From: Candidatus Shapirobacteria bacterium
Lineage (GTDB): Bacteria; Patescibacteriota; Microgenomatia; UBA12405
DNA length: 64,000 nt
Assembly: GCA_030698565.1 (NCBI GenBank)
Contig: JAUYJS010000003.1
Coordinates: forward strand, 12,187-76,186
Direction: 5' to 3'
Within the stretch, counting starts at the first letter, position 1; every line of letters begins with the position of its first letter. The notes below the pieces were generated by a model. The model was not told the DNA's origin and made no database searches. It was given only the letters and a program-made list of their open reading frames with translations. Shown piece by piece: positions 2,887 to 63,604 of the stretch. Made by a program: the position numbers and the translations under genes.

Positions 2887-2892
2887 ACAAAT

Positions 2893-3010
2893 TTGTCATT
2901 CCGAGCAAAATCGAAGGATCAACAAGTTTGTCATTCTGAACGAAGTGAAGAATCTAGCGAAGCGTCAATAAGTTGTCATTCCGAGCGAAGTGGAGGAATC
3001 TAGCGAGCGA
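2893..3010. repeat. Three tandem imperfect copies of a short hairpin-forming repeat (tTGTCATTCCGAGCrAArTcGAAGGATCtag), MITE-like
   Basis: The copies are at 2893-2920, 2927-2964 and 2972-3010. Inverted copies occur at 3310-3348 and a solo copy at 7661-7696. Confidence 0.7.
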
Positions 3011-3030
3011 AACGAGCGTAAACTAAGTTA

Positions 3031-3321
3031 ATGAGCAGAAAATATTTTGTTTATATTTTGACCAATTATAAAAATAGTATTTTATATATCGGCATTACAA
3101 ATAGTTTAGAAAGAAGAGTTTTTGAACATAAAAATCACCTAAACCCAGACTCGTTTACGGCTAAATATCGGTTATATAAATTAATTTGGTTTCAAGAATT
3201 TGAAGATGTTCGTGATGCGATATTGGTTGAAAAAAAGATTAAAGGATGGAATAGAAATAAAAAAATAAACTTAATTAAAGAAATGAATATAAATTTTATA
3301 GATTTGTTTACGCTTCGCTAG
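3031..3321 (+). CDS. GIY-YIG nuclease family protein (small, stand-alone)
   Basis: The N-terminus, YFVYILTNYKNSILYIGITNSLERRVFEHK, is a canonical GIY-YIG motif. The gene is flanked by inverted repeats. Confidence 0.75.
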   Translation: MSRKYFVYILTNYKNSILYIGITNSLERRVFEHKNHLNPDSFTAKYRLYKLIWFQEFEDVRDAILVEKKIKGWNRNKKINLIKEMNINFIDLFTLR

Positions 3322-3348
3322 ATCCTTCGTTGTACTCAGGATGACAAT
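3310..3348. repeat. Inverted copy of the 2893-3010 repeat, overlapping the GIY-YIG stop codon
   Basis: The sequence acgcttcgctagatccttcgttgtactcaggatgacaat is the reverse complement of the upstream repeat consensus. Confidence 0.65.
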
Positions 3349-3407
3349 GTGGCATTAACCGCAGATTAACCTAATTAAACGTTTAAAAGATGTTATAATA
3401 AACTCAG

Positions 3408-5112: not shown

Positions 5113-5144
5113 AGGAGATTAGAGGGATTAAGCTATAATAATTT

Positions 5145-7106
5145 ATGATCACCCTCGACAAACTCGATCTACAAAAAATGTCTCCCGAGGAAATGGGCGA
5201 ACTTTTGGTCGAAGCCAAAAAGGCTTACTACATAACTAGTAAACCAATAATGGACGATCATACTTACGATACATTAGAGGAAATTTTACGTCAAAAAAGT
5301 CCTTATCATCGGCTTTTTAGTAAAGTCGGCAATCAGAATTTTGATACCGGATTCAATAAAAAAAAGCACACCATGCCTATGGGTTCTCAAAACAAAGTAA
5401 ATATCTACACTGATTTAATTCATTACTTCGAACTCAAGCAAAAGGCTGCAGGCGACATTGATATGAACAGTATTTCTTACGTTGTTCAACCCAAATGCGA
5501 TGGTATTTCTTTGGAAATTGAATATAAAAATGGTCAATTAGTCGACGCCATTACTCGTGGTGATGGGGAAATAGGAGACGTGATTACCCAAAATGTCGTT
5601 AAAATGAAAAATTTTGTCCCAGAAATTAAAGATGATTTTACCGGCTCCGTCCGCTGTGAAATTGTCATGACATTTGAAAATTTTAAAAAAATAAACGACC
5701 TACAAAACATTTATTCCAACCCTCGCAACGCCGCCTCTGGTATATCTCAACGTCTCGACAGTAAATATTCCGAATATTGTAGTCTCTATGCTGTCGATAT
5801 TTATTCATATAATGTACGGGCGATTCACGAATCGCCCTTTTCATCTGAAATTCAAAAAATTGAATATTTAAAAAAACACAATTTTGTTACTGTCGATACT
5901 CTCTGTTGTCCAAAAATTAACGAAGTAGAGCCGATCTATCAAAAATATTTAACCGAAGATCGCAGAGCGTATCCTTTTGAAATCGACGGTTTGGTTATCA
6001 AAATAAACGATCTTGATTTGCAAAGAAAACTTGGTTTTCATAATAACCGGCCCAAAGGTCAAGTTGCCTACAAATTTCCCTCAAAAACCAACCAAACTAG
6101 AATTTTATCGGTTAACTGGCAAGTCGGTCCGATGGGGACTATCACACCCGTTGCCCAAGTTGAACCGATTGAAATTTCTGGTGCTGTTATTACATTTGCA
6201 TCGCTCGCCAATTACCAACTTATCAAAGATAAAAATATAAATGTGGGAGATGTAGTTGAAGTCAGCCGCCGGGGAGATGTTATTCCTCACATCGACAAAG
6301 TAATTACTAAAGTCAACGAAGGTCATTTTTTAGCACCAACACTCTGTCCCTCATGCGACACCAAACTTATTTTGGAAGATAAATTTTTGCGTTGTCCCAA
6401 TATTTCTAGTTGTCCAGCTCAAATTTTTGGAAGTCTCAAATTATTTTGTGACGCCCTCGATATTAAAGGCATTTCCGATAAAACCATAGAAAAACTTTAC
6501 CAAGCTAGTCGTGTTCGTTTGCCAGGCGATTTTTATAAATTAAAAATTTCTGATTTTGAAGATTTAGCTGGCTTGGGAACCAAATCGGGAACCAATATTG
6601 TCAAACAAATTCAGGACAAAAAAACCTTAAATCTAAAACAAGTACTAGGTGCCGCCATTATTCCAAATTTTAGCAACGCTCGGATTCAACAGATTATTAA
6701 TGCTGGCTTTGACACTCCCGATAAAATCTTAAATATTACCACAGACCAATTAGAAAACCTGCCGGGAGTTAAACAAACATTGGCTCAAAAAATTTATCAA
6801 GGCATTCAGTCGCGTAAAAATTTTATCGAATCAATACTTGCTCAAGTTAGCATAAAGAAAATTAGCCAATCTCAAAAATTAGCCAACCAAACTTTCGTAA
6901 TAACTGGAAGCCTAGATCATCCTCGTGAGGAAATCATAAATGAAATCGAATCACTCGGCGGCAAAGTTGTTTCAACCGTCAGCCAAAATACTTCTTATCT
7001 TATTACCAACGAAACCAACTCCAATTCTTCCAAATTTGTCACCGCTCAAAAATTAGGAACCAAGATAATCAATGAAGCTGAATTCTATGATTTAATTAAC
7101 CAATGA
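5145..7106 (+). CDS. ligA: NAD-dependent DNA ligase
   Basis: It has the adenylation motif KCDG (VQPKCDGISLEIEY), zinc-finger cysteines, HhH and a C-terminal BRCT-like region, in 653 aa. Confidence 0.9.
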   Translation: MITLDKLDLQKMSPEEMGELLVEAKKAYYITSKPIMDDHTYDTLEEILRQKSPYHRLFSKVGNQNFDTGFNKKKHTMPMGSQNKVNIYTDLIHYFELKQKAAGDIDMNSISYVVQPKCDGISLEIEYKNGQLVDAITRGDGEIGDVITQNVVKMKNFVPEIKDDFTGSVRCEIVMTFENFKKINDLQNIYSNPRNAASGISQRLDSKYSEYCSLYAVDIYSYNVRAIHESPFSSEIQKIEYLKKHNFVTVDTLCCPKINEVEPIYQKYLTEDRRAYPFEIDGLVIKINDLDLQRKLGFHNNRPKGQVAYKFPSKTNQTRILSVNWQVGPMGTITPVAQVEPIEISGAVITFASLANYQLIKDKNINVGDVVEVSRRGDVIPHIDKVITKVNEGHFLAPTLCPSCDTKLILEDKFLRCPNISSCPAQIFGSLKLFCDALDIKGISDKTIEKLYQASRVRLPGDFYKLKISDFEDLAGLGTKSGTNIVKQIQDKKTLNLKQVLGAAIIPNFSNARIQQIINAGFDTPDKILNITTDQLENLPGVKQTLAQKIYQGIQSRKNFIESILAQVSIKKISQSQKLANQTFVITGSLDHPREEIINEIESLGGKVVSTVSQNTSYLITNETNSNSSKFVTAQKLGTKIINEAEFYDLINQ

Positions 7107-8351: not shown

Positions 8352-8837
8352 TTAATTCAACCACCACACCGCCGCAGTCAAATAAGTCGCAAAGGTTACC
8401 CAAGCAAGATAGGGTATTAGTAGCCACATTGTCACCGCTTTAATTTTTCTGAATTCTATAATCGTAAAAAAAATCATAACCCACAAAACTAAAATCTCCG
8501 CCACAGCCAAAGTCAAAAGATGAAATTTAAAAAAGATAATTGACCACAATAAATTCAAGGCCAATTGGATCAAATAAATTTTAATTGCCCAACTTCGATC
8601 AGCATCTTTTTGTTTTTTACCAATCTTCTCTGTCCAAATAAAATAAAAGGCAACACCCATCAAAATATATAGAGCCGTCCACACTGGACCAAAAATTCCA
8701 TTCGGCGGCAACAGCGATGGTTTATTTATTTGTGAATACCAGGTTTGAATTTGAGAAATCGTAAAAAGAGAACCTAAATAACCAACGAATAAAGGCAACA
8801 ACAAGGAAATTGCTAGTTTTGGTAAATTAAATTTCAT
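8352..8837 (-). CDS. tspO: TspO/MBR tryptophan-rich sensory protein
   Basis: It is a five-TM protein with FGPVWTALY and Trp-rich motifs. Confidence 0.75.
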   Translation of the reverse strand: MKFNLPKLAISLLLPLFVGYLGSLFTISQIQTWYSQINKPSLLPPNGIFGPVWTALYILMGVAFYFIWTEKIGKKQKDADRSWAIKIYLIQLALNLLWSIIFFKFHLLTLAVAEILVLWVMIFFTIIEFRKIKAVTMWLLIPYLAWVTFATYLTAAVWWLN

Positions 8838-22731: not shown

Positions 22732-23664
22732 TTATTTGTTACCACTATGAAATTTATCATGAACTTCCCGCAATCTAGCATCAGTCACATGGGTATATAT
22801 TTGAGTAGTCGCAATATTTTTATGTCCCAATATTTCTTGAACTGACCTTAAATCGGCACCGGAACGGAGTAGGTCAGTTGCCATAGAATGACGTAAAGTA
22901 TGTGGTGTAGCCAGCACTGGTAATTTTGCCTGCGTCACATATTTTTTTACCAATCTTTGCACTGATCTGGCTGTTAATCTAACCTTGTCGTCGTCAGCCG
23001 TAATTTCATTCTTTCCAGAGTAGTGAATAAAAAGTGGTTTATATTTATCCATTCGATTTTTTAAATACCGATCCAAATATTCCGCCGCTTGTTTTGAAAT
23101 AAAAACGATTCTAGATTTACCGCCTTTACCAATAATTCCAAACTCTCGAGTCTTTAAATTAATTTGATCACAGTTCAAAAAAACAAGTTCAGATACTCTC
23201 AAACCAGTAGAAAACAAAAGCTCCAAAATCACCCTATCTCTCAACCCAGCCTTTTCTGACAATAATGGTTGGTTAAGCAGTCTTTTCATTTGATCTTCAT
23301 CCAAAAACTTTAAGGAGTGATCTTTATTTTTCGGTACTTCTAGTTTTTCCGGCTGTAAAGTTTTAATGTCATTTTTTATTAACCATTTCAAAAAAGATCT
23401 CAATGCAATTATGTAATATCCCTGGGTCACTATTTTCATATCTCCATTAGTTCCTTTTTGCCTTGATAAAAAAAGTCTGAACCGCCTAACCGTATCGACA
23501 TTAATGTTTTCTATTTTTACTGTATTTTGATTTTCATCCGACAAAAATTTTACTAATACATTTAAATAATGTTCGTAATTTCTAATTGTTAATCTGGAAC
23601 AATTTTTTTCAATCTCCAAATGTTCTAAAAATTTTCTGATCAAATTATTTAAATCATCATTCAC
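22732..23664 (-). CDS. xerC: Tyrosine site-specific recombinase (XerC/XerD family)
   Basis: It has a C-terminal R...HTLRHSMATDLLRSGADLRSVQEILGH...Y catalytic motif. Confidence 0.85.
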   Translation of the reverse strand: MNDDLNNLIRKFLEHLEIEKNCSRLTIRNYEHYLNVLVKFLSDENQNTVKIENINVDTVRRFRLFLSRQKGTNGDMKIVTQGYYIIALRSFLKWLIKNDIKTLQPEKLEVPKNKDHSLKFLDEDQMKRLLNQPLLSEKAGLRDRVILELLFSTGLRVSELVFLNCDQINLKTREFGIIGKGGKSRIVFISKQAAEYLDRYLKNRMDKYKPLFIHYSGKNEITADDDKVRLTARSVQRLVKKYVTQAKLPVLATPHTLRHSMATDLLRSGADLRSVQEILGHKNIATTQIYTHVTDARLREVHDKFHSGNK

Positions 23665-28678: not shown

Positions 28679-29039
28679 AATCGATACAAACAGTAGTTTC
28701 TGGTCTAACTGCTAATCTATCGGTATCAATCATTTTGCCGCAATTTTCACAAATTCCATACTTACCCAACTTCATTCTAGTCAAGGCTTTTCTAAATTGG
28801 ACTATTTGGACACTTACAAAGTTAGCTTTAACCTCAGCATCGAAATGTCCTACTTGTTCATCAACGTCTTCTTCTAAAGAATTATTTGTTGTTCGGCTTT
28901 CATCCTTAAACGGATCCGCTTCATTGATGTTTTTTTTAGTTCTTTTTAACTTCACTATTTCCGACTCCAAAAATGTTTTAATCGGCAACAACAGCCGGCT
29001 GGGAAAACTTACTATTTTCATGTCTTTATTCTTGATCAT
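28656..29039 (-). CDS. DksA/TraR-family C4 zinc-finger protein
   Basis: It has a C-terminal CENCGKMI...RL...VCIDCE motif. Confidence 0.65.
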   Translation of the reverse strand: MIKNKDMKIVSFPSRLLLPIKTFLESEIVKLKRTKKNINEADPFKDESRTTNNSLEEDVDEQVGHFDAEVKANFVSVQIVQFRKALTRMKLGKYGICENCGKMIDTDRLAVRPETTVCIDCEKERED

Positions 29040-29707
29040 TATTTTTTTCTCCCTAAAATCTGTAACGGTTCAAATACTTCTCCTAGAATAAACAATCCGA
29101 TCAAAAAAATCAAACTGCCACTTAGGTATAAAATTGGATAGACCATATCTTCTTTGAACCAAAACAATATTAATCCCAATAAAAACATAATAATAAAATT
29201 AGCAAAAAAATAAGCAAAACCCTTTTTTCCGCTTTTATACCACACAAAAGATCGATACTTTTTCTTTACTCGACTAGTTAAAAACCAACCAAAAATTAAA
29301 GCCAGAAATAACGATACTGATTTTAAATCAAAATTACTTTTAAAAACCTCTTCCAAAAAAATCAAAGATATAAATACCATAAAACTATTGATAATATCTT
29401 CAGCTAGTGTCAATAATTTCCAACCTCTTTGATTAGCCACGAGGTAAGAAATAATCAAAAAAACTACATAACCACCAGTAAAACTTATACCAGGTTTTTG
29501 CCAAAAATTAATCCAATCATAATAATTTTCATTCCAAATTCCCCAATTCATTAGGCCAAAAATTAATCTACCACCCAAAAAAAACGCCAACATAGACAAC
29601 CAAGAATAAGATATTAAATCTTCTTCCCTATAATCTTCTCTCAAGTTCCGCCAAGTTAAATAAAGAAAAAGAATTATTCCCAATATTCGAAAAATTCCCA
29701 AAATCAT
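29039..29707 (-). CDS. Polytopic membrane protein, possibly prolipoprotein diacylglyceryl transferase-like
   Basis: The FFLGGRLIF and SFTGGYVVF motifs are loosely Lgt-like, and it lies next to lspA. It is shorter than canonical Lgt. Confidence 0.35.
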   Translation of the reverse strand: MILGIFRILGIILFLYLTWRNLREDYREEDLISYSWLSMLAFFLGGRLIFGLMNWGIWNENYYDWINFWQKPGISFTGGYVVFLIISYLVANQRGWKLLTLAEDIINSFMVFISLIFLEEVFKSNFDLKSVSLFLALIFGWFLTSRVKKKYRSFVWYKSGKKGFAYFFANFIIMFLLGLILFWFKEDMVYPILYLSGSLIFLIGLFILGEVFEPLQILGRKK

Positions 29708-29751
29708 ATATGTCTATTTTACCAAAGAAAAAAACTTCTATTGTTATTTTG

Positions 29752-29796
29752 TACCGAAGGAGGGAACCTGCCTGCCGGCAGGCAGGTCGAACCCCC
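29752..29796 (-). repeat. Duplicated 3' fragment of tRNA-Leu (T-arm plus acceptor 3' strand) with a 20-nt perfect GC palindrome inserted in the T-loop
   Basis: The minus-strand sequence is GGGGGTTCGA-[CCTGCCTGCCGGCAGGCAGG]-TTCCCTCCTTCGGTAC. The real tRNA has GGGGGTTCGATTCCCTCCTTCGGTA. Confidence 0.7.
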
Positions 29797-29807
29797 ATTG
29801 TTCTCTG

Positions 29808-29891
29808 TACCGAAGGAGGGAATCGAACCCCCACAACATTGCTGTCACACGATTTTGAGTCGTGCGCGTCTACCAATTCCGCCACTCCGGC
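29808..29891 (-). tRNA. tRNA-Leu (anticodon CAA)
   Basis: It folds by hand: acceptor GCCGGAG/CTTCGGT, D-arm GCGGAATTGGTAGACGC, anticodon stem CACGA/TCGTG with loop CTCAAAA, a long variable arm, the T-arm GGGGGTTCGATTCCCTC and discriminator A. No CCA is encoded. Confidence 0.85.
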
Positions 29892-29923
29892 ATTTTAAAA
29901 GAACTACAATTCCGCTTTTACCC

Positions 29924-29966
29924 TACCGAAGTTTTGCATTGCAAAACGTAGGTGGGCACTCCGGCA
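29924..29966 (-). repeat. tRNA-Leu-derived mini-helix (acceptor-stem halves joined by a short palindrome)
   Basis: The minus-strand sequence is GCCGGAGTGCCCACCTACG-TTTTGCAATGCAAAA-CTTCGGTA. The terminal cactccggcatttt duplicates the tRNA 5' flank exactly. Confidence 0.55.
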
Positions 29967-29995
29967 TTTTAAAAAACTTTGTTATTATCTCATTC

Positions 29996-31303
29996 CTACC
30001 CCTTCTTTTCCACATCAAAAAAGCTGACTTGTTTGCCATTAAAATACAAATTAAAATTTCCTACCGGACCATTTCTATGTTTTTCAATACTACAAGCCAC
30101 CATTTCCCGAACTTCTTCATCTTCCCGATATAAAAACATAACCACATCGGCATCCTGTTCAATACTGCCAGACTCTCTCAAATCCGACAGTCTTGGTTTA
30201 CCTCCCCTAGCCTCCATCGCCCGGGATAATTGTGCCAATGCTAAAACTGGAATCTTTAATTCTCTGGCTAAATTTTTTAAACCTTGAGAAATTTCTGAAA
30301 CTTCCTGTACCCGATTATCTCGTGTACTTCCATGCATTAACTGCAAATAATCCACTACTATAAATTTAATATCCTTATCCGCCTGCAATCTTCTAGCCTT
30401 AGTTCTCAGTTCTGTCACAGTCAAACCCGGAGTATCATCAATATACAAAGGCGCTTCGGCCAATATTCCCATAGCTTCGGATAAAGAATTAAAGTCATCA
30501 TCAGATAATTGTCCGGTTTTTAATTTCCATGCATCAATCAAACCTTGCCGGACCAAAAGTCTATCTACTAATTCCTCTTTGCTCATTTCCAAAGAAAAAA
30601 TGCATGTCGGAATTTTGTTTTCTACAGCAACATAACGGGCGATATTCAAACAGAAAGCGGTCTTACCCACACCTGGTCTAGCTGCCAAAATTATTAAATT
30701 GCTGTCCTGCATTCCAGCCAGCGTTCTATCTAACGCCGAAAAACCCGTCGCCACACCCCTAAGTCCAGTTCCCATCTTTTGCAGCTCATCTAATCTATCA
30801 AAACTAGCTGTCAAAACTTCTTTGAGCGAAGTCGGAACTGACTTTAAATGCTTTTGGGATAAAGTAAAAATTTCCTGTTCGGCTGCATCCAAAAGTTCAT
30901 CCGAAGGTAAACTATCATCAAAAGCTTTTTCAGTAATTCTGGCCGCTGCTGAAATTAACTCTCTTTTAGCTGATAAAGCTTTTATAATTCGTCCATAACT
31001 TTCCACATTCGCCGCTGTCGGTACATCGTTTGCTAATCTAGCCAAAAACGCTTTACCTCCGATTCGTTTTAATACCTTTAATTCTTTAAGTTTCTCTGAC
31101 ATCGTCACAATATCAATCGGCATTCTGTTTTCATACAGAAGCATCATTGCCTCATAAATTTTACCCAAATTATCATTATAAAATTGTTCTGGTCTCAAAA
31201 ATTCAGATACCGCCAACACCGCATCGTTATCGATTAAAATAGAACCCAAAACGCTCACTTCTGCTTGTTCAGAACTGGGCGGTAATTTCATTACATCTGC
31301 CAT
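29996..31303 (-). CDS. dnaB: Replicative DNA helicase
   Basis: It has an N-terminal DnaB domain, Walker A ARPGVGKT and a RecA-like C-terminal domain. Confidence 0.9.
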   Translation of the reverse strand: MADVMKLPPSSEQAEVSVLGSILIDNDAVLAVSEFLRPEQFYNDNLGKIYEAMMLLYENRMPIDIVTMSEKLKELKVLKRIGGKAFLARLANDVPTAANVESYGRIIKALSAKRELISAAARITEKAFDDSLPSDELLDAAEQEIFTLSQKHLKSVPTSLKEVLTASFDRLDELQKMGTGLRGVATGFSALDRTLAGMQDSNLIILAARPGVGKTAFCLNIARYVAVENKIPTCIFSLEMSKEELVDRLLVRQGLIDAWKLKTGQLSDDDFNSLSEAMGILAEAPLYIDDTPGLTVTELRTKARRLQADKDIKFIVVDYLQLMHGSTRDNRVQEVSEISQGLKNLARELKIPVLALAQLSRAMEARGGKPRLSDLRESGSIEQDADVVMFLYREDEEVREMVACSIEKHRNGPVGNFNLYFNGKQVSFFDVEKKG

Positions 31304-33315: not shown

Positions 33316-34389
33316 TTAATATTTATTTATTATTTTTTTGTATCGTGTCGTTGATCCTTGACCAATCCGTTCTATCATCTTTAATTCCAACAGCTTATTT
33401 ATCACCTGATTAATAGTCGGTCTGGGTACACCTGTTTTCTGCGATATTTCTCTCGGTGTAGTTTGGTCAACATTTTTCATATAATTCCACACGATAAGTT
33501 GTTGTGGCGAAAGTATTGTTTCAATGTTTGTTTGAGTAAGTAATTGAATGGCCATTTGAGATTGTGTCAGTAATATATCTAAAAAGAAATTAACCCAAGG
33601 TGACATATCAATGTGTTTAGTTCTTAAAGTCTTTTGACTTTTACGAAGGGCTAAATAATATTCTGGTTTATTATCTTCAATCAACTTTTCGTGTGATACA
33701 TAAGGCATATAGGCATAACCAAACTTAAGTAATAGAAGATTGGTTAATATTCTTGATAATCTGCCGTTTCCATCCTCAAACGGATGGATATTGAGAAATT
33801 CGACAAGAAAATTAGCGATCACTAGAAGTGGATGATATTTATTTTGTTCTAAGGCATTTTTAGTCCAATCTACAAGTTCAGACATTTCCTTGGGTGTTAA
33901 AAAGGCCTTGGTGGTTTCAAAAAGAACCTCGATTGGTTTACCTTTATCATCTATCATTACTACTGTATTTTCTTTTTTCTTATATTCACCCCGATGTAAG
34001 ACATCTTTTCCAACATATTTTAATAACTCTTTATGAAAATGTTTAATGATATTTTCATTAAATACCAATGACTCCCAAGAATTAAAGACATTTTGAAGTA
34101 ACTCATAATAACCCTGAACTTCCTGTTCATCTCGATTACTAAATTTTTGAATAGATATACCCCGAATCATTTTTTCAATCTCTTCATCAGACAATTTTGA
34201 TCCTTCAATACGAGTGGAAGCCCCAGTTGAAGTGACTAATACTGATTGTTTTAATCGACCTAAAATTTGAGGACTAAGTTTAGTACTCCCTTCCCAGTTT
34301 CCCTTAATAGACTCAATTTGGGTAATTTTTAACCAAATGTCAGAAGAAATATTTTCTAATCGAAAATCGAATTTATTATTCATATACAT
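33316..34389 (-). CDS. Fic/DOC family protein (second paralog) with a C-terminal HTH-like domain
   Basis: It carries the Fic motif HPFEDGNGRLSRIL. It lies directly 3' of tRNA-His. Confidence 0.8.
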   Translation of the reverse strand: MYMNNKFDFRLENISSDIWLKITQIESIKGNWEGSTKLSPQILGRLKQSVLVTSTGASTRIEGSKLSDEEIEKMIRGISIQKFSNRDEQEVQGYYELLQNVFNSWESLVFNENIIKHFHKELLKYVGKDVLHRGEYKKKENTVVMIDDKGKPIEVLFETTKAFLTPKEMSELVDWTKNALEQNKYHPLLVIANFLVEFLNIHPFEDGNGRLSRILTNLLLLKFGYAYMPYVSHEKLIEDNKPEYYLALRKSQKTLRTKHIDMSPWVNFFLDILLTQSQMAIQLLTQTNIETILSPQQLIVWNYMKNVDQTTPREISQKTGVPRPTINQVINKLLELKMIERIGQGSTTRYKKIINKY

Positions 34390-54996: not shown

Positions 54997-55683
54997 TACG
55001 GGCGATTCATGAATCGCCCCTACATTTAAAATTTTTCGGATTATTTCTATCTCTTTCCCACATTATCGGATTCATTCTTATATATTCTCTAATTTTTTTT
55101 AACTCAATTTCGTTTCTAACGATATGTTCATAATAATTCCGTTGCCAAACAAACATTCCAATCTCTCTAGATGCATTCATTTTCAAATATCCGATAATTT
55201 TTGACAACATCGATCTCTTCGGTAGGGGCGATTCATGAATCGCCCTGTTTAATTTCCTAATTGATCCATTTATCAATTTGGGCGATTCATGAATCGCCCC
55301 TACATTTTTTATTATTAAAATTAAATGAATATGATTGGGCATTATCTGAAAAATATCCATTACCAAATCAAATCTTGCCTCTAATTTTATTAACCAATTT
55401 TCAATTATTAAACCATTATTATTCGAGATCATCTTGCCATTAATAATGGCACCAAACATTTGCCTTCTTTCAAATGAACATATGGTTATAAAATAATATC
55501 CTCCGCCTGAATAATTCCATTTTTTTAACCGGATTGACCTACGGTGATAATCCATATGTAATAATTATTACATATTATTATTTGTACGGGCGATTCATGA
55601 ATCGCCCCTACCCGTCATCCCGAATTTATTTCGGGATCTAAATCCCGCATTCCTTTTTTGGGCGATTCATGAATCGCCCCTAC
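54997..55683. repeat. Five copies of REP family A surrounding and inside RAYT gene 1
   Basis: The copies are at 54997-55023, 55222-55247, 55279-55303, 55585-55612 and 55659-55683. Each contains GGGCGATTCATGAATCGCCC. Confidence 0.8.
55007..55555 (-). CDS. REP-associated tyrosine transposase (RAYT, IS200/IS605-like HUH), copy 1, with REP-A sequences translated in frame
   Basis: It has YYFITICSFERRQMFG (motif I), MPNHIHLIL (HUH) and WQRNYYEHIVRNEIELKKIREYIRMNP (catalytic Tyr region). GAIHESP occurs twice, and the C-terminal CRGDS is encoded by REP-A copies. Confidence 0.75.
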   Translation of the reverse strand: MDYHRRSIRLKKWNYSGGGYYFITICSFERRQMFGAIINGKMISNNNGLIIENWLIKLEARFDLVMDIFQIMPNHIHLILIIKNVGAIHESPKLINGSIRKLNRAIHESPLPKRSMLSKIIGYLKMNASREIGMFVWQRNYYEHIVRNEIELKKIREYIRMNPIMWERDRNNPKNFKCRGDS

Positions 55684-62919: not shown

Positions 62920-63576
62920 TTAATAACAAACATCTTTCTGCCAATTTTTGGGATTATTATCAATATATTGTTTAATCGCCCAATATTCCTTTTCTGTCCG
63001 GATAATCCGATCATAATATCGGGCTTGCCAGGTGAAAAATAACTGGTGACGGTTACATTCTGATTTGACCGCCGCCTTAAATAATTTAATTGTATTGGGA
63101 ATAATTTGCCTTGATTTAAATCCATTTTCCCGTAGAGACGCACTGTGTGCGTCTCTTTTCAATTCCCGATTATTTTGGTTTATCGGTTTGATTTGATTGA
63201 TGATTGGGGAATTTGTTTTGAGACGCATACAATGCGTCTCTACAATGGGTTGATTTTTAATTTCCATTATCAAATGCACATGATTGGGCATAATCACCCA
63301 ATCATCTATTTTAATATTTTTCCTAATTTCCGAGGTTTTTAATAATTCCTGTTTAGCAATTTCTCCCGCCTTGGACAATTTCATTTGACCATCAACAATT
63401 TTTCCCAAGAATTTATTTTTATTATGGGTACAAATGGTAATAAAATAAAACCCTGATTGAGAATAATTCCAATTTAATAACCTCGCCGATTTCACTCGAA
63501 ATTTATCCGCAAACAAATCTGGGTTATCAACAAACATTACATTAATTGTAATATTTATTGCATTAATATGTTGCAT
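62920..63576 (-). CDS. REP-associated tyrosine transposase (RAYT), copy 2, cognate to REP family B
   Basis: It has FYFITICTHNKNKFLG, MPNHVHLIM and WQARYYDRIIRTEKEYWAIKQYIDNNP. ETHCMRL and RDAHSASLRENG are in-frame translations of REP-B copies. Confidence 0.75.
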   Translation of the reverse strand: MQHINAINITINVMFVDNPDLFADKFRVKSARLLNWNYSQSGFYFITICTHNKNKFLGKIVDGQMKLSKAGEIAKQELLKTSEIRKNIKIDDWVIMPNHVHLIMEIKNQPIVETHCMRLKTNSPIINQIKPINQNNRELKRDAHSASLRENGFKSRQIIPNTIKLFKAAVKSECNRHQLFFTWQARYYDRIIRTEKEYWAIKQYIDNNPKNWQKDVCY

Positions 63577-63604
63577 GTAGAGACGCGCTGCAGCGCGTCT
63601 CTAC
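63132..63604. repeat. Three REP family B copies in and at the 5' end of RAYT gene 2
   Basis: The copies are at 63132-63156, 63220-63243 and 63577-63604. The last is GTAGAGACGCGCTGCAGCGCGTCTCTAC, identical to 46529-46556. Confidence 0.8.

Follow-up and report, generated by a model that had tools for sequence, protein, structure and literature searches.

A tRNA-Leu(CAA) gene between hairpin-bearing fragments of itself: probable remnants of a GIY-YIG cassette in a Candidatus Shapirobacteria genome

Why should a working tRNA gene be flanked on both sides by pieces of itself, one of which carries a perfect 20-nucleotide palindrome in its T-loop? The question is raised by a tRNA-Leu(CAA) gene in the stretch of Candidatus Shapirobacteria DNA analysed here, which is 64 kb long, has a GC content of ~34% and is referred to below as the window. 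A preliminary description of this DNA took the fragments for the scar of an integrase-mediated insertion and excision. We arrive at a different reading, to which we assign a probability of roughly 0.6, namely that the working tRNA gene is bracketed by two ORF-less remnants of a selfish GIY-YIG cassette that nests in the tRNA genes of CPR bacteria.

Followed along the minus strand, the locus runs from dnaB (31303..29996) through an upstream element, the tRNA-Leu(CAA) gene (29891..29807) and a downstream fragment to a gene for an lgt-like membrane protein (29707..29039), which is followed by a dksA/traR zinc-finger gene, lspA and rluD. This order agrees with the earlier placement of the locus between lgt-like/lspA and dnaB. 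ARAGORN and Rfam (RF00005, 55.1 bits over the full model, 1-71) likewise concur with it in finding a single intact tRNA-Leu(CAA), a working gene on the minus strand without an encoded CCA (29807..29891, the lower boundary being given as 29807/8), and no second tRNA emerges from a permissive Rfam scan of 29650-30050. Elsewhere in the window a Fic/DOC domain protein with a C-terminal winged-helix (MarR/TrmB-like) domain is encoded next to tRNA-His (33316-34389, minus strand).

The downstream fragment is separated from the tRNA by a gap of only 10 nucleotides and is built from two exact direct repeats of the tRNA 3′ end, both on the minus strand. The first, of 11 nucleotides (TGGGGGTTCGA, 29787..29797), copies the T-stem 5′ strand and TTCGA from tRNA coordinates 29823-29833. 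The second, of 17 nucleotides (TTCCCTCCTTCGGTACA, 29750..29766), repeats 29806-29822 and comprises the remainder of the T-loop, the T-stem 3′ strand, the acceptor 3′ strand, the discriminator and 2 nucleotides of flank. The perfect palindrome CCTGCCTGCCGGCAGGCAGG (29767..29786) sits exactly between TTCGA and TT of the copied T-loop, that is between A58 and T59, and was detected from the sequence and by repeat analysis; its insertion is not accompanied by a target duplication. The exact repeats and the insertion point bear out what had been claimed for this side, a copy of the T-arm and 3′ end with the palindrome exactly in the T-loop. The palindrome has a single copy in the window even when 3 mismatches are allowed, with 0 expected, and no GIY-YIG ORF or ORF remnant is present at 29700-30000.

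The upstream element had been described as an acceptor-stem mini-helix. It consists instead of tRNA positions 1-9 and 10-22, split by a 41-nucleotide hairpin insertion. Read in the sense of the tRNA, the order is TTTTAAAAT-GCCGGAGTG, CCCACCTACGTTTTGCAATGCAAAACTTCGGTAGGG-TAAAA, GCGGAATTG-TAG-TTC, TTTTAAAAT and then the tRNA itself, all on the minus strand. The first block (29957..29974) is an exact 18-nucleotide direct repeat of 29883-29900, made up of 9 nucleotides of upstream flank (TTTTAAAAT) and tRNA positions 1-9 (GCCGGAGTG, at 29965-29957), so that the exact duplicate of the flank noticed earlier is real. The insertion (CCCACCTACGTTTTGCAATGCAAAACTTCGGTAGGG plus TAAAA, 29916..29956) follows tRNA position 9 and is predicted to fold at -22.3 kcal/mol (z = -2.4). 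It shows positional homology with L003, L035, L201 and L204, at the site where relatives carry a hairpin, hp1, followed by TAAA; when examined as a possible repeat family, its sequence proved unique. The second block (29904..29915) corresponds to tRNA positions 10-22 with one base missing (GCGGAATTG-TAG, a 9-nucleotide exact match to positions 10-18). The 8-nucleotide sequence CTTCGGTA, previously interpreted as the acceptor 3′ strand, belongs to another hairpin, CCCACCTAC..GTAGGG, as its 3′ side. In the fold of the whole element the proposed acceptor helix reaches -10.5 kcal/mol (-12.8 when forced) against a minimum free energy of -22.3, and its pair probability is ~0. The suggestion that the mini-helix is a tRNA mimic is not supported, given that the pairing of acceptor 5′ and 3′ strands is disfavoured in the fold and that the element has no Rfam match.

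A promoter-like site lies 5′ of the 5′ fragment (29984..30012, minus strand) and consists of TGGAAA, 17 nucleotides and TG-GATAAT, an extended -10 box. By alignment it is the counterpart of a conserved box, TGTGAGATAAT / TAGGTTATAAT, that directly precedes the tRNA in relatives with an empty site, and the promoter scan finds no such site directly 5′ of the real tRNA in the window. Transcription of the tRNA probably starts at this promoter, 5′ of the 5′ remnant, and RNase P would then release the tRNA. A terminator role for the hairpins was considered and rejected for lack of a T run; within 29600-30100 there are 0 terminator-like sites, a GC hairpin followed by a T run being absent.

Does the same site look different in other genomes? 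With DnaB as the query we collected 44 species-level loci, largely from Candidatus Shapirobacteria and other Microgenomates/Patescibacteria (CPR). Nearly all of them have a tRNA-Leu(CAA) gene following dnaB; both its orientation and its distance vary. Many of these loci are plain and empty, with the promoter box, the tRNA and the next gene in succession (e.g. L004, L010 and L015). Fragments are present in 11 of 39 species, the window included, and always have the orientation of the tRNA. Their tRNA-derived blocks match the tRNA of their own genome; for example, the T-loop of L035 reads TTCAAGT and its fragment has TTCAA and GT on the two sides of the palindrome. Presence and absence alternate at one site among close relatives. 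L009 and L010 share 304 of 315 aligned columns and are distinguished by a clean 431-nucleotide insertion bounded by tRNA positions 1-10, and comparisons with L011 reveal a 339-nucleotide insertion in L002 and insertions of 97 and 87 nucleotides in L003. The site is polymorphic for insertion and loss, and to this extent the preliminary description was right. The flank bases upstream of the tRNA are duplicated together with the tRNA start both in the window (9 nucleotides) and in L089 (8 nucleotides), and such a co-duplicated flank fits a local duplication better than an imported tRNA.

The 20-mer is shared as well. It occupies the same T-loop insertion point as in the window in L003, L035 and L204/L205, is intact at this site in four species with differing neighbouring spacers, and recurs at a D-arm position (between GGCAGA and CGCGCAC) in the 5′ fragments of L003 and L009. 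Decayed forms are found in L024, L030 and L204. Other rearrangements can be seen at or near these tRNA genes. Between the same dnaB and lgt genes of two sister species, L012 (4300-4420) and L015 (4290-4420), a promoter-plus-tRNA-Leu module of ~125 bp is inverted, with no obvious inverted repeats at the boundaries of the flipped module. In L029 a mini remnant of tRNA-Leu stands isolated at 5133-5165, its anticodon arm joined to the T-loop end and the acceptor 3′ strand; the intact tRNA is 1.3 kb away, on the other side of an inserted transporter-like ORF.

The occupant of the site in relatives is an ORF of ~80 amino acids (78-86) with a GIY-YIG catalytic domain (Pfam PF01541, E-values of 4e-11 to 3e-16), which covers residues 1-71 and has no DNA-binding domain appended to it. 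The closest matches of these ORFs are the distantly similar UPF0213/Slx1-like proteins (PDB 1zg2 and 1ywl, E about 3e-3). In L035 the ORF separates the tRNA from a 3′ T-arm fragment, which has the palindrome at the T-loop position seen in the window, and in L002, L009, L019, L024 and L204 it has a 5′ fragment on one side and the tRNA on the other. A complete cassette has the ORF 0-10 nucleotides from an intact tRNA and a leftover piece of the same tRNA on the far side, which is either a 5′ piece starting directly after the tRNA promoter or a 3′ piece consisting of the T-arm and the acceptor strand. On the DnaB tree these cassettes have a patchy distribution. A conserved promoter box is found 5′ of the 5′ fragment in cassette loci, so that fragment, ORF and tRNA would form one transcript.

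This ORF family has at least 92 relatives, mostly of ~80 amino acids, and is not confined to tRNA-Leu(CAA). The context of five of them is a promoter, a 5′ fragment with GC hairpins, the ORF and an intact tRNA 0-10 nucleotides downstream, the tRNAs being Leu(TAA), Leu(CAA) in Shapirobacteria, Leu(CAA) in a MAG labelled Bacteroidetes, Tyr and Gln. Hairpin-bearing 3′ fragments are found too, in L204 and L210. Loci selected by means of the palindrome repeat this architecture at tRNA-Lys, Arg, Asn and Ser, and fragments without a nearby ORF at tRNA-Ala, Val and Arg. Our literature search found no paper on GIY-YIG genes associated with tRNA fragments in bacteria. Far from the tRNA-Leu locus, at ~2890-3350, the window has a 96-amino-acid GIY-YIG gene of another subfamily (ATG at about 3031, end at 3318). 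Three tandem TTGTCATTC(C/T)GA.CGAAG.. units come before the gene and an inverted copy (..CTCAGGATGACAA) comes after it, an IS- or MITE-like layout, and in L135 the CCTGCC palindrome lies inside units like those flanking this gene.

The hairpins are a constant of the leftover fragments. GC-rich hairpins are found inside the leftover fragment in 10 of 10 tRNA-linked cassettes (at tRNA-Leu, Tyr and Gln), a count that takes in only cassettes found without reference to the palindrome. Their sequences differ, being the 20-mer or variants of it, TCCGCC-N-GGCGGA, TCGCC-N-GGCGA or CCCGCC-N-GGCGGG/GGTGGG, and so do their positions, in the D arm, the anticodon loop or the T-loop. The hp1 stems, read directly from the sequences, also change from species to species (TCCGCC/GGCGGA, TCCCGC/GCGGGA and TCCCGA/TCGGGA), and each is perfectly complementary. 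When hairpins are removed in silico, the predicted probability of the correct acceptor stem in the window is 0.99 with or without them; in L003 the comparison is 0.95 vs 0.49-0.79. Fragments can host more than one hairpin: two insertions per fragment, 9-10 nucleotides apart, bracket the D-loop in L139 (620-670) and L144 (571-630), and L097 (7300-7400) has one hairpin in the anticodon loop and another, CCTGCC..GGCAGG with an expanded centre, in the T-loop.

How far does the 20-mer itself reach? A search for further copies, proposed in the preliminary description, returned the one in the window and, elsewhere, exact copies in at least 120 metagenomic and 35 viral-contig stretches, on contigs of 29-71% GC. 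The calculated expectation at about 35% GC is roughly 1e-14 per position; some of the high-GC matches may be due to chance. The preliminary description held that identical flanks in relatives and a generic repeat unrelated to tRNA loci would count against insertion at this site. The palindrome is indeed a widespread generic repeat, yet it is enriched in tRNA-derived sequence, and the flanks of the locus vary by indels. Among the matches listed, in loci chosen by the palindrome alone, 13 of 169 palindrome junctions lie in tRNA-like sequence, against 12 of 1690 positions drawn at random (odds ratio 11.7, p = 4e-8). These junctions are in fragments that adjoin intact genes for tRNA-Lys, Arg, Asn, Ser, Ala and Val, several with a GIY-YIG ORF between, and GIY-YIG is the only protein family that recurs near the palindrome (7 of 155 loci among the matches listed). 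About 90% of the copies among the matches listed are not near tRNAs or GIY-YIG genes, and the palindrome may therefore be an independent passenger.

The copies listed have no flank consensus and no GTAG/CTAC, 166 of 170 have an immediate duplication of at most 2 nucleotides, which is to say no target-site duplication, and the insertions into tRNA sequence are precise. A Y1 ORF that might be a cognate RAYT is near the palindrome in only 3 of the 155 loci listed. Variants with one or two mismatches or an expanded centre exist. The idea that the palindrome halves are the termini of a longer element was dropped, as only decayed or centre-expanded variants were found, and so was a general targeting of hairpin loops, the folding of flanks showing no enrichment over shuffled partners (p = 0.43). 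Several low-GC copies lie inside long open frames when the effect of deleting the 20-mer on ORFs is considered, high-GC contigs being uninformative in this respect. Nor does deletion generally restore an intact tRNA: this was seen only in L190, a viral tRNA-Met, and elsewhere the 20-mer lies in fragments beside an intact tRNA. We found no paper that contains its sequence.

In L190 (2239-2330) the 20-mer is located in the variable region, and ARAGORN calls the tRNA with or without the insert; a further viral copy, in L167 (~8570-8660), is matched to the L190 tRNA-Met only by BLAST. Both contigs have 64-68% GC. In this setting the 20-mer may be a tolerated extra arm. Another copy, in L087 (~3592), lies inside the reading frame of a Y1 (IS200-like) transposase, directly before the HUH motif (..CLPAGRFVVMPNHVH..). 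The window hosts a second perfect 20-nucleotide palindrome, GGGCGATTCATGAATCGCCC, with five copies at 55000-55680, mostly followed by CTAC, around and within an ORF for a RAYT-like Y1 transposase (55007-55555, minus strand; NCBIfam REP_Tyr_transpos, 50 bits, below the cutoff of 80). Two of these copies are inside the ORF, in frame as AIHESP, and a variant copy is found at 5818-5837. A second Y1_Tnp-like ORF (62922-63600, minus strand, motif VIMPNHVH) resembles those inserted between dnaB and tRNA-Leu in L006 and L008.

How might these observations be joined? The window is linked to the GIY-YIG cassette by the architecture that it shares with relatives. With the ORF absent from its locus and present at the orthologous site in relatives, it holds a remnant and not a member, and most likely, judging from the sequence comparisons, a working tRNA with an ORF-less scar to either side. 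A cassette would arise by insertion and/or by nuclease-stimulated local duplication, for which SegB of phage T6 offers a precedent. Because a complete copy of the tRNA adjoins the ORF, the tRNA stays functional without splicing. Loss would occur by deletion between short direct repeats, and in the window the ORF would have been lost on both sides. The hairpins may persist because they break the direct-repeat homology that would otherwise delete the cassette, and/or they may lock the leftover strands into local structure; the 20-nucleotide palindrome, a widely dispersed mobile hairpin, is among them. The 20-mer may be a passenger, in the manner of REP elements or GC clusters, or else a cis site that belongs to the nuclease. 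We consider it unlikely that an 80-amino-acid catalytic domain without a DNA-binding domain is a sequence-specific homing enzyme; the intact tRNA would still carry any target that lies inside the tRNA.

Could the fragments have formed without a nuclease? The tRNA may have been duplicated in tandem, the decayed copies then gaining REP-like GC palindromes by chance and tolerating such insertions as pseudogene pieces. We regard this as unlikely, although it deserves to be weighed: upstream flank was copied along with the tRNA start, REP/RAYT-type palindromes and Y1 transposases are present in the genome, and most palindrome copies among the matches listed are in non-tRNA contexts. However, a palindrome present once in 64 kb does not readily account for a hairpin in every cassette fragment inspected, which is far beyond chance for 40-nucleotide targets. 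Large insertions accumulate, moreover, in fragments whose tRNA-derived blocks still match the resident tRNA exactly, and relatives have a GIY-YIG ORF at exactly these positions.

Alternatively, the fragments may be functional as RNA; they might, for instance, imitate a substrate of RNase P or RNase Z, signal the processing or termination of the tRNA transcript, or divert enzymes that target tRNAs. The predicted hairpins are stable (z = -2.4 to -3.6), the hp1 stems vary between species with perfect complementarity, and the 20-mer persists at one T-loop site beside differing spacers, all of which could be read as selection on an RNA. That said, palindromic DNA elements keep perfect complementarity without such selection too. 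Moreover, the distribution is patchy, with 28 of 39 species (window included) lacking fragments, the extents and hairpin types are variable, the mini-helix is disfavoured in the fold, and neither a terminator-like site nor an Rfam match was found. We think a function of this kind improbable.

The duplicated tRNA 3′ end would suit the original proposal of an att scar, in which an integrative element left the duplicate behind on excision or decay, and a tyrosine recombinase gene is present at 22732-23664. Its product is, however, Xer-like (SAM_1 plus Phage_integrase, 310 amino acids), and it is encoded 6 kb away with pta, yebC, rluD, lspA and lgt intervening. The surroundings of the tRNA were examined in 38 related loci, none of which has an integrase next to it, and neither an island nor an integrase was found at the site in any relative of the present sample. 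5′ fragments are present as well, and the occupant in relatives is a 250-nucleotide ORF and not an island. The insertion and loss implied by a scar are seen in the occupied and empty relatives; the involvement of an integrase is not, and we consider it very unlikely.

Mis-joined repeats around the tRNA are scarcely credible as the source of this arrangement, for although an independent Logan contig (L001, from SRR26726065) breaks inside the tRNA, as repeats often cause, it matches the upstream element base for base, and the same architecture recurs in independent assemblies with species-specific covarying sequence and decayed palindrome variants. The L001 contig ends at window position ~29862, and many GIY-YIG homologues are on very short contigs, which together suggest that repeats at such loci commonly break assemblies.

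A more general proposal can be put forward, tentatively and with rather more doubt than confidence. An undescribed family of minimal selfish elements may be present in CPR bacteria and in some other bacteria and phages, in which a GIY-YIG gene of ~80 codons lives in tRNA genes, the host being spared by a complete tRNA copy and not by an intron, and the displaced half being neutralised by hairpins in its loops. The 20-mer would be the bacterial counterpart of the mitochondrial GC clusters and maybe a cis-acting site of the nuclease, as a cruciform substrate, rather than a passenger. We found no description of such an arrangement in the searchable literature. Were this proposal true, the tRNA genes of streamlined CPR genomes would be habitats for a minimal nuclease element, with partial gene duplication taking the place of splicing, and the tRNA pseudo-fragments, flipped tRNA modules and assembly breaks of these genomes would be explained. 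It would also provide a substrate set for the uncharacterised UPF0213/Slx1-like GIY-YIG proteins of bacteria, namely tRNA-gene DNA and one defined 20-nucleotide palindrome. An ultra-conserved and widely dispersed palindrome has been identified in any case, and annotators should not take such fragments for integrase att sites.

How does this arrangement compare with known systems? Like the att sites of integrative elements, it includes a second copy of a tRNA end, by which the gene stays whole despite the insertion; unlike them, it has no integrase, has fragments on both sides and internal hairpin insertions, and its cargo is a single 80-amino-acid ORF. With REP/RAYT systems it shares a dispersed palindrome of ~20 nucleotides in many copies. 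The CCTGCC...GGCAGG palindrome differs in that it lacks GTAG/CTAC or any other flank consensus, has no consistent cognate RAYT and occurs in very different genomes.

Neurospora PstI palindromes are reportedly flanking tRNA genes, an observation credited to Yin et al. in 1981. More generally, mitochondrial GC clusters (Neurospora PstI, yeast GC42 and the Allomyces double-hairpin elements) are short, conserved, GC-rich palindromes dispersed in AT-rich genomes, often beside tRNA genes and mobile ORFs, with a sporadic distribution and a constrained structure (PMC4478555; PMC1864894). The palindrome described here is likewise short, conserved, GC-rich and dispersed. Its hosts are bacteria and phages, though, and the exact 20-mer is common to contigs of 29-71% GC. 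It also lacks the target duplication of the yeast GC clusters, which duplicate AG, and the hairpins are inside the loops of tRNA fragments, whereas mitochondrial clusters merely flank genes.

SegB is a protein of roughly 220 amino acids and has a DNA-binding part. It is a free-standing GIY-YIG homing endonuclease of phages T4 and T6, encoded in a tRNA gene cluster; it cuts the DNA of tRNA genes and thereby favours its own inheritance (PMC2330249), and it drives the tandem amplification of tRNA and segB units via microhomology at the tRNA 5′ end (PMC13096335). Amplification of this type would account for partial tRNA duplicates beside the ORF. In both cases a gene for a GIY-YIG nuclease is embedded among tRNA genes. 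Unlike SegB, the ORFs described here are ~80 amino acids long, consist of the catalytic domain only and are nearest to UPF0213/Slx1-like proteins; they reside in cellular CPR genomes and are nested with the tRNA on one side and a promoter-proximal tRNA fragment on the other, GC hairpins filling the fragment loops. In summary, the closest known systems are the Seg-type GIY-YIG endonucleases of phage tRNA clusters and the GC-rich palindromic clusters of fungal mitochondria, and what sets the arrangement apart from both is a minimal 80-amino-acid enzyme, its nesting between promoter and tRNA, and tRNA fragments filled with hairpins.
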